NCBI GenBank assembly: GCA_038826135.1
Contig: JAWBON010000003.1
Coordinates: 5,690-37,689, forward strand
Source of the DNA: Candidatus Odinarchaeota archaeon
Lineage (GTDB): Archaea; Asgardarchaeota; Odinarchaeia; Odinarchaeales; Odinarchaeaceae
Reading direction: 5' to 3'
Length of the DNA: 32,000 nt
Positions 1,623-12,970 of the stretch are shown here, piece after piece. Under the pieces are notes generated by a model. That model searched no databases, was not told where the DNA came from, and saw only the letters and a program-made list of their open reading frames with translations. Position 1 is the first letter of the stretch, and the number at the start of each line of letters is the position of its first letter. A program made the position numbers and the translations under genes.

Positions 1623-1754
1623 GCGGGGGTTCCCAAGCCAGGTCTAAGGGGCAGGACTGAGGAAGGATAAACCTTTAGATCTCCTGTGGACTTCCTTTCA
1701 AAAAAGGAGGCAGAGCGTAGGCCTTCATGGGTTCAAATCCCATCCCCCGCACCA
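1623..1754 (+). tRNA. tRNA-Leu(GAG) with two BHB introns (1663-1680 at 37/38; 1690-1715 in the variable arm), encoded CCA
   Basis: Acceptor stem GCGGGGG/CCCCCGC, T arm ATGGG-TTCAAAT-CCCAT, anticodon stem CAGGA/TCCTG with loop CT-GAG-G|C. After both introns are removed the variable arm GGC-GTAG-GCC forms; mature length 88 nt. Confidence 0.93.
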
Positions 1755-3762: not shown

Positions 3763-3867
3763 GGCTCGGTAGCTCAGCCCGGTAGAGCGGCAGCATGGTA
3801 AGTTGTCGGTCTTGTATGCATTGCATACGAGGATGAATCGTGGGTTCAATTCCCACCCGAGCCTCCA
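3763..3867 (+). tRNA. tRNA-Thr(GGT) with a 28-nt BHB-type intron at 46/47 (3810-3837), encoded CCA
   Basis: Acceptor stem GGCTCGG/CCGAGCC, U73, D arm GCTC/GAGC, anticodon loop AT-GGT-AA, T arm GTGGG-TTCAATT-CCCAC. The intron contains a 9-bp hairpin. Confidence 0.92.
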
Positions 3868-6826: not shown

Positions 6827-7396
6827 CTATAACATCTGACATTTTTCATAAGCTAATTTAGTAGCTTCAATATTTTTATCTAGGAATTCACCACTCCAAG
6901 TCTCTTCAACAACGGTGAGAATGTTTTTTAGTTTTACGAGTCCGGTGGCTTTTGAAAAGGCACCTAACATGCAGGTGTTAACAACAGGCAGACCTGCCAC
7001 AGTCAAATTAATATTAAATGCAATAGTTGTAGCATCTACGATAAAGACCTTCAGATCCTTCACCGAAGCCGCATTTATATCTGAACAGGGGGAATTAACT
7101 ATCAGATAGCCGCCCGTATTAATTTCCTTATCAGGGTGAACTATACTTAGAAGACTCCAATCAAGAACTATGAAAATATCAGCAGAATATATCGAAGTAA
7201 ACTCATGAATGGCGGTTCCCCCTATCCTAGTATAGGCTTTCACAGGGGCTCCCCGCCTTTCCGCTCCGAAAAAGGGAAATGATTGAACATCTTTAAAACC
7301 TTCAATAAAAGCGGCTTTAGCTAGAATATTTGACGCTGTTACTGCTCCTTGACCGCCTCTACCCAACCAAGTTATATCCCATTGCCGAATAGACAT
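6827..7396 (-). CDS. porC: 2-oxoacid:ferredoxin oxidoreductase gamma subunit
   Basis: GRGGQGAVTA, FFGAERRGAPV and VNTCMLGA motifs. Confidence 0.93.
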   Translation of the reverse strand: MSIRQWDITWLGRGGQGAVTASNILAKAAFIEGFKDVQSFPFFGAERRGAPVKAYTRIGGTAIHEFTSIYSADIFIVLDWSLLSIVHPDKEINTGGYLIVNSPCSDINAASVKDLKVFIVDATTIAFNINLTVAGLPVVNTCMLGAFSKATGLVKLKNILTVVEETWSGEFLDKNIEATKLAYEKCQML

Positions 7397-7569: not shown

Positions 7570-7866
7570 ATGTCAGATGCAAATGTAGTATACGTTGGAA
7601 ATAAGCCAGTTATGAACTATGTTTTAGCTTGTGTTACCCAATTAAACCAGGGTGCTGATGAAATTATAGTAAAGGCTCGTGGTAGAGCTATTAGCAGAGC
7701 TGTTGATGTCGCAGAGATTTTAAAGAACAGATTTATGACGTCGGTAGAAGTCAAGGATATAAAAATAAGCACAGAACAGATCAACACAGCCGAGGGCGGC
7801 CAAGCTAACGTAAGTGCTATCGAGATAGCCTTAAGCGGTAAAGCTATCCCAAAAACTAAGAAATAA
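7570..7866 (+). CDS. albA: DNA/RNA-binding protein Alba
   Basis: [35 protein letters not shown]; GAGGTG RBS. Confidence 0.97.
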
Positions 7867-7964: not shown

Positions 7965-8513
7965 TTAACCTAAATTGTAACCTATTTTTCTCACTAAGTC
8001 TTTTCTGCCTTGTCTTTGAGTATCGTCCTCGATCTTGTTAACAGACTGCCCGTCTACGACCCCCAGCACGGCCCTGCCTACGGAGGAGCCGAGCGGGGTC
8101 TCAGCTAAAATTACCTTACATTTATTAGCGGTCCCTACATATAAATTGACTACGCCGTAGCTAAGCTTTAAGGCGTTCATTAAATTTATAGGCCAAGCGC
8201 CTTTAAACTGTATTACAAACACGTGACTTGCACCTATGTTTAGTGCGTTCCGCGCCACTATTTTTTTTAAGGTTTCATCATTACCTTCTACACGGGTTAG
8301 CCTTGGATCAGCCTCATTCATCGCACATGCAAACCTAACTTGACCGTCAGTAGTCCCCGGGACGGCTGCTTGAACAATCCGGTAAAGTTCGTCAACCATT
8401 TTAATAGAGAAAATGGGGTTTTAATCCAGTGATTAAAAATTCCCCTGCCCTATTATTATCTGGTGGTCAGGTTCTTTTTCTATATCTACACTAATTAATT
8501 TAATTTCACTCAT
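7965..8513 (-). CDS. DUF355 / adenosine-specific kinase family protein, two exons (8513-8440 and 8412-7965), 173 aa after splicing
   Basis: Exon 2 has NEADPRLTRVEGND, IGASHVFVI, WPIN, TAN and LGVVDG motifs of the family. Exon 1 (GAAGGTGA RBS, ATG at 8513) encodes MSEIKLISVDIEKEPDHQIIIGQG. The spliced junction GQGNFSIKMVDEL aligns to the family's N-terminal GQxxF...VxDL region as I recall it. Confidence 0.88.
8413..8439 (-). other. 27-nt BHB intron in a protein-coding gene
   Basis: Minus strand reads GGGG-AAT-TTTTAATC-ACTG-GATTAAAA-CCCC-ATT. It contains two in-frame TAA codons, and excision at the standard BHB sites restores the frame. Confidence 0.85.
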
Positions 8514-8569
8514 ATGCATTCACCTTCTTTTTTAATAGAATATTTTATTAACTTGAAAATTATAAAAAT

Positions 8570-9220
8570 ATGGTATACGTTTTAGTGCTTAGGTTTCTGA
8601 AAAGATTATTATATGTGATTGTTGTATACAATTTTGTATCCGTACGGTACCTTGTTTCAGGAGGTAAAATTATCAAAGAAGAAACCGATAAAAATGTTAT
8701 TTTTTGGATTAATAGACAATTAGATGACCCGATTACAAAAATTATGCTTAAAGAGACCAATTTAACTGAAATTCAGCTTAATACGCTCTTATTAGATTTT
8801 CTAGCAGATGGTTTTTCTGAAGAAAAGGTAAAGTACGAGGAGAAAGCAAGACTAAGAAGATTGAAAGCCGAGGTAAAAAAGGAGGGTAAAAGAGCGATAA
8901 CCAGAACCAATTCTGGAGTTTCGAGAGGCGCCTTTAACAGGGTTCTAAAGCAAGCTAGAAAAAATGTGATAAGATCAATTTACACAATTATACTACTAGG
9001 CTATCTGGGTCTTTTTGACGATCCTCGTCTCCAACAATATCTTGAACTAGCAGAAGAGCTGAGAGGATATTCCAAAACATATGAGAAAGCATATGCTCAA
9101 CTTACAGACAACAAGACTCAGCTAAAGGAAATCAAGGAATTATTATCCAGTCTACAAAAACATTTAAAAGAGACAATAGAGCAGCTTGGAGACCATACGA
9201 GTTTAAAATCAAAAAAGTAA
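8570..9220 (+). CDS. Conserved archaeal helical protein of unknown function (true start probably about 8669-8672)
   Basis: Motif SRGAFNRVLKQARKNVIRSIYTIILLGYLG, which I recall in TACK/Asgard hypothetical proteins. GGAGGT at 8660-8665 precedes in-frame ATT/ATC. Confidence 0.7.
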   Translation: MVYVLVLRFLKRLLYVIVVYNFVSVRYLVSGGKIIKEETDKNVIFWINRQLDDPITKIMLKETNLTEIQLNTLLLDFLADGFSEEKVKYEEKARLRRLKAEVKKEGKRAITRTNSGVSRGAFNRVLKQARKNVIRSIYTIILLGYLGLFDDPRLQQYLELAEELRGYSKTYEKAYAQLTDNKTQLKEIKELLSSLQKHLKETIEQLGDHTSLKSKK

Positions 9221-9365
9221 TATAACGGAATATATTGGGTTATAATGGAGGATAATAGGATTATATTCAAATATAAGGCGCCGACTAAAAAATAGTATAA
9301 GTAAACTTACAAATATTTAAGAGAAGGAGTTACGTAATACATTGGAGTATGTTGGGAGATATAAT

Positions 9366-10286
9366 ATGACCTGGACTCGTGATGTGTTCACCAGCAGAAT
9401 TAAAAATTTAGAAGAAGCGCGGCGCAAATACTACGAACTCTTAGGGTGGCAGAAGAATATATTTCAGGATGCGGAGCTACCGGCAGGGGATATATACGTT
9501 GACAATAATGAAGACTGCATTATCCAGATAGCTCAAGCACTTAATGGTCAAAAAAGCCAAATTGTATTAATATACGGTGATGCGGGAATCGGTAAATCTT
9601 GTTTCAGAAGGGAGATGGAGGAAGAGCTACGAAGCGATCCTGTGATAGGTAAAAAGTACATGTTTATTATAGTGGATGACCCCGGACAGTATACTGATCT
9701 TCAAGTATTAAGACTGATTGGTTCGGAGCTAAATATTGATTTTGAATCAAAGTGGAATAATCGAGAGGCTGTCGCCTCAATGATACTTAAAAAATTGCTT
9801 GAAAATTTTATTGAGAAAAGGGTTCAAACAATTATAGTTTTAGATGAGGCTCAGAAGCTTAGCCTAATAAGCCTTGACACTTTAAAACAGTTTAGCGACC
9901 TTGAGTATGAGGGGATAAAAATATGTAGGCTAATTTTACTAGGCACCCCGGAAATATTCAAGAAATTATCCTCACCTTCGATGGAGCCTTTTATCGATAG
10001 GATACTTATTAAATTTGAATTAAAAGGCTTCAACTTTAAAGAGACCGCGGAGTATATTGCGAGGTGGATTGCGTACAGTAAAGGTGAGGAGTTTAAGGGT
10101 GTAGATGGGACTTCTATCTACCCATTTACCCCAGATGCGGTTGAAAAAATATTTCAAATCTCAAAAGGCCATCCGCGAACGGTCAGAAAACTGTGCGCCC
10201 TAAGTATAGATGTAAGACTTGAGAATCCGAAGAGTGTTGAGATAGATTCGCCAATAGTTGAGGAAGCTAGTAAAAGATTAATATAA
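9366..10286 (+). CDS. ExeA/GspA-like (AAA_22) AAA+ ATPase
   Basis: Walker A GDAGIGKS, Walker B IIVLDEAQ, sensor-1 LILLGTPE, arginine-finger region FIDRI, lid SKGHPRTVRKLC. ATG at 9366 follows GGGAG. Confidence 0.8.
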   Translation: MTWTRDVFTSRIKNLEEARRKYYELLGWQKNIFQDAELPAGDIYVDNNEDCIIQIAQALNGQKSQIVLIYGDAGIGKSCFRREMEEELRSDPVIGKKYMFIIVDDPGQYTDLQVLRLIGSELNIDFESKWNNREAVASMILKKLLENFIEKRVQTIIVLDEAQKLSLISLDTLKQFSDLEYEGIKICRLILLGTPEIFKKLSSPSMEPFIDRILIKFELKGFNFKETAEYIARWIAYSKGEEFKGVDGTSIYPFTPDAVEKIFQISKGHPRTVRKLCALSIDVRLENPKSVEIDSPIVEEASKRLI

Positions 10287-11428: not shown

Positions 11429-12970
11429 ATGAAAATGCAAACAATAAATCAAATGTTAGAAGACCTTATAGAGAGAGGCTATCAATTAACACCAGCAGCT
11501 TTTAAAATTATAAATGAATCTGAAAACCCGCTTGAAACAATCAGCCTACTAATAAACAAAATTTCGGCAACCTCTGGTTTACCCCCTGTTTTAGATGTAG
11601 AGGTTATTTCCTCTTTAATAAATACTCAAAAGGATATTTCACCCCCCAGACCGGAATTAAATCATAATGGTCAGATAGCTACTAGTTTAAAACCTTTACC
11701 GGTAGCCCGAGATGCGGTTGAAAAAATAAAAATATTATTCGACCCTACCGGCAAATCATACTCCACAGGGAGAACAGAGGAGTTCATTAAATACTTTCAG
11801 AACAGGTACATGAAAATTAAAAAAATTTTCCTCTCAAGGAAGGATATGAACGATGTTATAACAATAGATGGTTTAAGCAGAACAAATTCAACGGAGGACA
11901 AAATCAAATTAATAGCTATAGTAATGGATAAAAAAGCTACGGGAAAGGGGAATATTCTACTAGAATTAGAGGATCCGACAGGTACAATTAAAGCAATCGT
12001 CAACAAGAATAACAGAGAACTATTTTTAAAAGCAAATAACATATTATTAGACCAGGTGTTGTGCTTCGAAGGCACAGTCAGCCAGTCGAACTTATTCTTT
12101 ATTGAAGAAATATATTGGCCGAATACGTCAACTCAGCATAAAAGTAAAAGCGCAGGGGAACAGATATTTGTAGGCTTACTTTCAGACATGCATATTGGGA
12201 GTAAACAGTTTTTAGAAAAATATTTTTTAAAGTTTATATCCTGGTTAAAAGGGGAAATAGGAAGTGAGAAGCAGAGAGAGATAGCCAGCCGATTGAAATA
12301 TATTATAATCGCTGGCGACTTAGTTGATGGAATAGGGGTTTACCCTCATCAAGAAGAAGATCTCGCCATTATAGATGTTACCGAGCAATATGAAAAAGCC
12401 AGATCACTACTAGAACAAATACCCGAATACATAAATATCATTATCAGCCCCGGTAATCACGATGCGAGTCGGCAAGCTTTACCCCAGCCAGCGATACCTG
12501 AAAAATATGCTAAAGGATTATACGATATGAAAAATGTAGTAATGGTTGGGAACCCCGCATTAATCCAAATATGTGAACATAATTTTCTCGTATACCATGG
12601 AAGAAGTTTAGATGATTTAGCAGCGTCAATCCAAGGTGCAACACCACTTAACCCCACTAGTTTAATGAGGGAGTTACTTGTTGGACGACATTTAGCTCCA
12701 GAGTTCGGAAATAGAACACCTATATCCCCGGAGTTCGAGGACTACTTGGTTATAGAAAATGAACCTGATGTCTTCCATGCAGGGCATTTACATATAACTG
12801 GGGTTGAAACATATCGGAATATAGCATTAGTAAATTCCGGTACCTGGCAAAGTCAAACTACATATCAAAAGAACATGGGGATAATTCCAACACCTTGCAA
12901 AATTCCATTATATGATTTGAGGGAGAACAAAATCCATATAATCGATTTTATGGAATACAACGGAGGATAA
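11429..12970 (+). CDS. polB: DNA polymerase D small subunit DP1
   Basis: OB-fold (LEDPTG) followed by phosphoesterase motifs SDMHIGS, AGDLVDG, PGNHDA, YHG, HAGHLH and NSGTWQ. Confidence 0.96.
   Translation: MKMQTINQMLEDLIERGYQLTPAAFKIINESENPLETISLLINKISATSGLPPVLDVEVISSLINTQKDISPPRPELNHNGQIATSLKPLPVARDAVEKIKILFDPTGKSYSTGRTEEFIKYFQNRYMKIKKIFLSRKDMNDVITIDGLSRTNSTEDKIKLIAIVMDKKATGKGNILLELEDPTGTIKAIVNKNNRELFLKANNILLDQVLCFEGTVSQSNLFFIEEIYWPNTSTQHKSKSAGEQIFVGLLSDMHIGSKQFLEKYFLKFISWLKGEIGSEKQREIASRLKYIIIAGDLVDGIGVYPHQEEDLAIIDVTEQYEKARSLLEQIPEYINIIISPGNHDASRQALPQPAIPEKYAKGLYDMKNVVMVGNPALIQICEHNFLVYHGRSLDDLAASIQGATPLNPTSLMRELLVGRHLAPEFGNRTPISPEFEDYLVIENEPDVFHAGHLHITGVETYRNIALVNSGTWQSQTTYQKNMGIIPTPCKIPLYDLRENKIHIIDFMEYNGG

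Follow-up and report, generated by a model that had tools for sequence, protein, structure and literature searches.

We analyzed a 32,000-nucleotide (nt) stretch (hereafter, the window) of the genome of a Candidatus Odinarchaeota archaeon (GenBank assembly GCA_038826135.1, contig JAWBON010000003.1, positions 5,690 to 37,689), in which a gene of the Pfam family PF04008 on the minus strand is divided by a short insert. Its open reading frames (ORFs), 8519/8513..8436 and 8399..7965 in window coordinates, share one frame, with TAA codons between them at 8435-8433 and 8423-8421. Across this interruption lies a strict helix-bulge-helix-bulge-helix (hBHBh') motif, read directly from the minus strand at 8455-8402 (Table 1). 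Its layout is that of the canonical archaeal bulge-helix-bulge (BHB), with a 4-base-pair (bp) helix 5' of a 3-nt bulge on each strand and the bulges on opposite strands. Eight of the ten positions of the outer helix are Watson-Crick pairs, and the other two are a G-U pair and a C-U mismatch. An unconstrained fold of 8395-8465 returned identical helices at -20.3 kcal/mol (z = -3.6), and only one of 200 shuffled sequences was equally stable.

Applying the rule that each 3-nt bulge is cut after its second base excises 8413-8439, a 27-nt piece that carries both in-frame TAA codons. The preliminary description of this locus, drawn up from the sequence alone, had proposed this BHB geometry and this excision, and had attributed a premature stop in the unspliced frame to the two TAA codons; the sequence reading and the unconstrained fold reproduced the geometry and the excision exactly, and both stops were found within the insert. 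A repeat or mobile-element origin was ruled out, the 27-nt piece being single-copy and its hairpin unique in the 1.26-Mb genome. An Rfam search of 8300-8600 returned no matches at E up to 1.

Host gene and restored protein

At the predicted join the coding sequence reads GGG AA/T TTC TCT (the slash marks the junction) and the protein ..IIGQGNF/SIK... The predicted junction in the messenger RNA (mRNA) brings ..CAGGGGAA against TTTCTCTATT, that is, ..GGGCAGGGGAA joined to TTTCTCTATTAAAATG, and the predicted tryptic junction peptide of the spliced product is EPDHQIIIGQGNFSIK. From the ATG at 8513 the spliced product comprises 74 + 445 nt, or 173 codons.

Both exons match the same protein family. 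Exon 2 alone matched PF04008 with an E value of 6.5e-39 over profile positions 22-153, and adding exon 1 in a read-through translation widened the match to positions 1-153 of 154, with a score of 142.6 bits against a cut-off of 25. The family is named Adenosine_kin in current Pfam, a kinase activity being implied by the name only. Six solved homologues were found. The read-through translation aligned with one of them, PH1918 (2d16), over residues 3 to 161 with a single gap of exactly 9 residues, placed between ..IIGQGNF and SI.., and exon 1 aligned with PH1918 residues 3-24.

The predicted cut sites close precisely this 9-residue gap, so that the restored GQGNFS motif and the 173-amino-acid (aa) length both bear out what had been proposed from the sequence. 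Eight intron-less homologues (49-58% identity) are all uninterrupted at the junction, have an invariant I-G-Q, and have N-termini level with that of exon 1; MVDEL, where the exon-2 ORF begins, is therefore not the start of the family, and by alignment exon 1 is part of the protein fold. The ATG of the exon-2 ORF (8399) has no ribosome-binding site, so that this start lacks both the ribosome-binding site and the family N-terminus, as had been suspected. No second PF04008 gene was found in the genome.

Conservation across Odinarchaeia

The host belongs to Odinarchaeia, a class of the Asgard archaea, which settles the Asgard-like affiliation first suggested for it. The PF04008 gene is interrupted at the same point in all seven species genomes compared for the class (two genera), and the 15 PF04008 matches in other classes of the phylum contain no internal stops. 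In a collection of 5.8 billion proteins, all 11 clusters at >=60% identity were called as proteins of 132-144 aa, corresponding to exon 2 only, and every cluster at <=53% identity was full length, with 156-188 aa among the closest. By fetching the DNA for exon-2-only proteins we added six metagenomic loci to the seven species genomes, giving the 13 distinct loci compared here.

In every one of these loci (13/13) the BHB falls in the same Asn codon (AA/T). The inserts measure 25, 25, 26, 27, 30, 31, 32, 34, 34, 35, 39 and 46 nt, mostly not multiples of three, and several loci have their two exons in different frames; at every insert length, the cut rule gives GQGNFS[IV]K in 13 of 13. RNAalifold independently predicted the same hBHBh' structure from the 13 sequences, with compensatory changes in 11 of 20 pairs. 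By pair counting, 96% of cells were paired, compared with 43-63% when the partner strand was slid, and the covariation score was 0.50, compared with 0.22 after shuffling (reached in 0 of 500 shuffles) and 0.07-0.19 after sliding. The central helix and the inner stem are 100% paired and the outer helix 90%. All 8 inner-stem pairs change on both sides across the loci, which is the compensatory variation that the preliminary description had proposed seeking in an alignment of orthologues.

The exon sequences are conserved as well. Exon 1 begins in all 13 loci with ATG or TTG at the same position, preceded by GGTG or GGAGG at a distance of 5-9 nt, and contains no stops; its variable sites are distributed 14/6/21 over the three codon positions, mostly third positions. 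Six of the loci have CTT, CTG or TTA in place of this genome's exon-2 ATG, and exon 2 therefore lacks its own start codon in these loci. Judged by these comparisons of sequence, the BHB intron is real, is shared by the whole class and occupies a new host gene. The odinarchaeal PF04008 proteins also contain TTDGQ/TTNGQ and GSSV/GTSV (alignment columns 59-63 and 148-151), two in-frame insertions that are specific to the lineage and absent from all other aligned homologues.

Proposed splicing pathway and its enzymes

We propose that the locus (7965-8513, minus strand) is a 173-aa PF04008-family gene with a 27-nt BHB intron inside the Asn codon of GQGNF, and that this intron is very probably removed by EndA/RtcB splicing of the mRNA. 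In the folded pre-mRNA, exon codons 18-27 would pair with the first exon-2 codons to form the outer helix, and the intron would form a hairpin of its own. EndA, probably of the two-subunit alpha-beta type, would cut both 3-nt bulges between their second and third bases, and RtcB would join the exons and probably circularise the intron. Ribosomes initiating at the AUG at 8513, which is led by a Shine-Dalgarno-like sequence, would then make the full-length protein, and on unspliced RNA they would stop after 28 residues. We infer the cleavage, the ligation and the translation of the spliced form from features of the genome.

The dependence on EndA and RtcB that had been proposed for this gene is matched by the enzymes encoded in the genome, namely two EndA paralogues and RtcB. 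A genome-wide profile search with PF01974, the EndA catalytic domain, found three matching places that represent two genes. The catalytic gene is broken over overlapping contig ends (C48:1-420(-) and C72:2-274(+)) and has the Tyr..His..Lys pattern; the second gene, on C45 (L057:1474-2031, minus strand), encodes a paralogue of 185 aa that has another residue in place of the catalytic His. The pair suggests a two-subunit alpha-beta enzyme (heterotetrameric). Alpha-beta endonucleases are tied to relaxed specificity and to the splicing of cbf5. The RtcB gene was identified by PF01139 (495 bits).

Two further observations concern this machinery and its usual substrates. RtcB is encoded as a single 995-aa open frame (C16:2586-5357(+)) in which the Pfam match is split into profile positions 1-50 and 49-426, lying ~1.4 kb apart, and the split therefore suggests an intein in the ligase gene. 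The window also holds two transfer RNA (tRNA) genes, at 1623-1751(+) and 3763-3864(+), whose spans of 129 and 102 nt exceed the 71-position model, so both carry introns; ARAGORN placed introns in most of the tRNA genes that it found in the genome, many at non-canonical positions.

Alternative explanations

Several features weigh against splicing. The intron begins only 74 nt from the start codon, so a ribosome in translation could unwind the outer helix before the RNA is cut. The C-U mismatch, on the exon side, abuts the central helix, and a 3-nt second bulge requires that the adjacent A-U pair be formed beside it; because of this mismatch the RNAalifold consensus leaves 2 + 5 unpaired bases and no clean 3-nt second bulge. 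In the second family the outer helix is weaker, with 7 of 10 positions paired. Intron-less alleles, whose existence the preliminary description had raised, are present in the sense that other Asgard classes have uninterrupted genes, but there are none among close relatives: no spliced or intron-less close relative appeared in the protein and metagenome collections searched. The protein search gave no full-length relative above 53% identity, and a degenerate 24-nt pattern for the spliced junction matched the metagenome contigs once, by chance, within an unrelated gene encoded on the opposite strand.

Of the competing accounts, the one that survives best, improbable as we consider it, holds that EndA cuts without the exons being joined, or that nothing is cut, so that only a truncated exon-2 protein is made, possibly with a separate 28-residue peptide, and that the hairpin is kept for some other role such as transcript processing or stability. 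This would agree with public annotations, which call exon 2 only, and with the presence of an ATG near the beginning of exon 2 in this genus. That ATG, however, has no ribosome-binding site and is replaced in six loci, as described above, and exon 1 is constrained as coding sequence and supplies residues 3-24 in the solved fold. Moreover, the introns range from 25 to 46 nt, yet the cut rule always restores frame and motif. Such constancy would be expected only if selection acts on the joined product.

Translational bypass of the kind seen in gene 60 of phage T4 would yield the same protein without splicing. Ribosomes would take off from UUU (Phe28) before the UAA, skip the hairpin and land on UUC 27 nt downstream. 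Matching codons for take-off and landing (UUU .. UUC) are available in this genome and genus, where a Phe codon is followed by the UAA and the hairpin and then by a second Phe codon, and the two routes would end in an identical product. Nine of the 13 loci, however, have AAA as the bulge and GQGK.. in the unspliced frame, which leaves no matching take-off codon, and in these nine loci Asn-Phe is restored only by the BHB cut rule. Bypass would also leave the GGGG/CCCC helix, the two 3-nt bulges and the exon-exon helix unexplained, and we regard it as highly unlikely.

A decaying pseudogene, read-through of the stop codons or an artefact of sequencing or assembly is just as hard to credit: the gene is short, has two in-frame stops and comes from a fragmented metagenome-assembled genome (105 contigs), but 13 independent assemblies, single-contig genomes among them, share the interruption, with both exons conserved as coding sequence, which excludes an artefact and a pseudogene (the gene is also the sole PF04008 member found), and read-through is excluded because insert lengths of 25, 26, 31, 32, 34, 35 and 46 nt break the frame.

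Other interrupted genes in the same genome

At least six further protein genes in this genome are interrupted by BHB inserts of 25-30 nt (Table 1), and conserved motifs are regained at the predicted joins. In gcvPA, kae1 and gatA, the Pfam profile positions matched by exon 1 run on into those matched by exon 2. Only interrupted genes that were checked by homology are given. A de novo census of mRNA BHB introns, combining a motif scan, ORF joining and a codon-usage score, never beat its mirror-image control (e.g., 61 real vs 57 mirror) and missed cases that homology later confirmed, and is unusable as a count. Two genes are uninterrupted: cbf5, whose TIGR00425 match is a 331-aa open frame without stops, and pyrG (C2:26650-27609(-) and C44:3701-4534(-), respectively).

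We consider it probable that tRNA-type mRNA splicing by EndA and RtcB is systemic and obligatory in Odinarchaeia, with at least seven genes in this genome (the PF04008 gene, gcvPA, kae1/tsaD, gatA, the citG-like gene, UPF0147 and the PflX-like radical SAM gene) predicted to need removal of a 25-30-nt intron to give full-length protein. If this is true, an Asgard lineage runs a routine protein-only pathway of pre-mRNA splicing.

Table 1 Features of the PF04008 locus (window coordinates) and BHB inserts in other protein genes of the genome (contig coordinates).
Feature	Coordinates	Strand	Basis
Shine-Dalgarno-like GGTGA, 7 nt 5' of the exon-1 start codon	8520..8524	-	Sequence; kept across 13 orthologous loci
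Exon 1: ATG 8513 to ..GGG AA, 24 codons and bases 1-2 of the Asn codon	8440..8513	-	Pfam and PH1918 alignment
27-nt BHB intron (predicted): last base of bulge 1, hairpin (8 bp, ACTG loop), CCCC, bases 1-2 of bulge 2	8413..8439	-	Sequence and fold
Exon 2: final T of the Asn codon and FSIKMVDEL.., ending with the stop codon 7967-7965	7965..8412	-	Pfam PF04008
Whole hBHBh' motif: exon-exon outer helix, 4-bp GGGG/CCCC, two 3-nt bulges, intron inner helix	8402..8455	-	Minimum-free-energy fold and RNAalifold consensus
Outer 5' strand TAATAGGGCA	8455-8446	-	Sequence reading
Central helix 5' strand GGGG	8445-8442	-	Sequence reading
Bulge 1 AAT	8441-8439	-	Sequence reading
Inner stem 5' strand TTTTAATC	8438-8431	-	Sequence reading
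Loop ACTG	8430-8427	-	Sequence reading
Inner stem 3' strand GATTAAAA	8426-8419	-	Sequence reading
Central helix 3' strand CCCC	8418-8415	-	Sequence reading
Bulge 2 ATT	8414-8412	-	Sequence reading
Outer 3' strand TTCTCTATTA	8411-8402	-	Sequence reading
gcvPA, 30-nt BHB insert	C60:2456-2485	-	GDC-P 9-99 (exon 1) / 101-428 (exon 2); YTPYQ restored
PflX-like radical SAM gene, 29-nt BHB insert	C33:9419-9447	-	CTFRCAYC restored
UPF0147, 27-nt BHB insert	C5:10077-10103	-	Homology-checked
CitG-like gene, 25-nt BHB insert	C79:1196-1220	+	Homology-checked
kae1/tsaD, 26-nt BHB insert	C27:~11638-11663	-	TsaD 6-63 (exon 1) / 64-264 (exon 2); SQGPGLGPCLR restored
gatA, 29-nt BHB insert	C35:~9457-9485	+	Amidase 5-153 (exon 1) / 155-445 (exon 2); GSDTGGSVRQPA restored

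Relation to known splicing systems

In the literature searched, the PF04008 gene would be a second, unrelated host, beside cbf5, for splicing of coding sequence by the tRNA endonuclease. No archaeal pre-mRNA splicing had been confirmed for genes besides cbf5 in 2009 (Yokobori 2009, PMC2738675), and a later report of a BHB intron in the 5' untranslated region (UTR) of the HVO_1309 mRNA of Haloferax volcanii named no other mRNA case than cbf5 (Schwarz et al. 2020, PMC7714728). In the reference list of a 2025 Nucleic Acids Research paper on archaeal endonucleases, the references on pre-mRNA splicing are cbf5 papers only, and Asgard intron work concerns tRNA genes only (PMC11291895; bioRxiv 10.64898/2026.10.13.758758). 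The preliminary description's suggestion of a new mRNA host gene thus agrees with the searchable literature, which holds the cbf5 coding sequence and the one Haloferax 5'-UTR intron; searches combining mRNA BHB introns with Odinarchaeia or Asgard gave nothing further, with many subscription papers outside coverage, so novelty is not proven.

The closest parallel is the cbf5 intron of Crenarchaeota (Desulfurococcales and Sulfolobales; Watanabe 2002, Yoshinari 2006, Yokobori 2009), which is likewise a short BHB intron in coding sequence, restricted to a clade and missed by gene callers. The splicing endonuclease of the cbf5-intron hosts is hetero-oligomeric, as the paralogue pair suggests for the odinarchaeal host. 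The two cases differ in host gene (PF04008 here) and phylum (Asgard here), the gain being independent, and splicing of the PF04008 gene is a prediction from sequence. The HVO_1309 mRNA is also a substrate of the tRNA splicing endonuclease, as predicted for the odinarchaeal mRNA, but its intron lies in the untranslated leader and leaves the reading frame intact, whereas the PF04008 protein would need the intron to be removed. Compared with the BHB introns of archaeal tRNAs, the motif geometry, the cut rule and the presumed enzymes are the same; the host here is an mRNA, and because its exon-side helix is built from codons, that helix is constrained by the protein sequence. The splicing of HAC1 and XBP1 (IRE1 endonuclease, with tRNA ligase or RtcB) is similarly a spliceosome-independent, protein-only cutting and ligation of mRNA that alters the frame, and the metazoan ligase is of the RtcB type, but HAC1/XBP1 splicing uses another endonuclease, twin stem-loops rather than a BHB, and serves as a regulated stress switch. 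We therefore draw the analogy only for the enzymology, that is, an endonuclease followed by RtcB-type ligation.

The host lineage is the archaeal group closest to eukaryotes, and the intron is fixed across the whole class. Together with the other interrupted genes, this suggests that spliceosome-free mRNA splicing belongs to normal gene expression in Odinarchaeia. Public annotation shortens the PF04008 genes, calling only the 132-144-aa fragment; since annotation shortens interrupted genes, Asgard gene catalogues and metabolic reconstructions may undercount intact genes.

Gene neighborhood

Both here and in the related loci that we fetched, the PF04008 gene is adjoined by an Alba gene on the opposite strand and, at most of the loci, also by a gene of the pyruvate:ferredoxin oxidoreductase gamma type (window 6827-7396(-), 7570-7866(+)), and the gene order around it is kept across the class. 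Upstream of the PF04008 gene, on the other strand (8570-10286(+)), the window encodes a 216-aa helical protein and a 314-aa AAA+ ATPase (GDAGIGKS .. GHPRTVRKLC).
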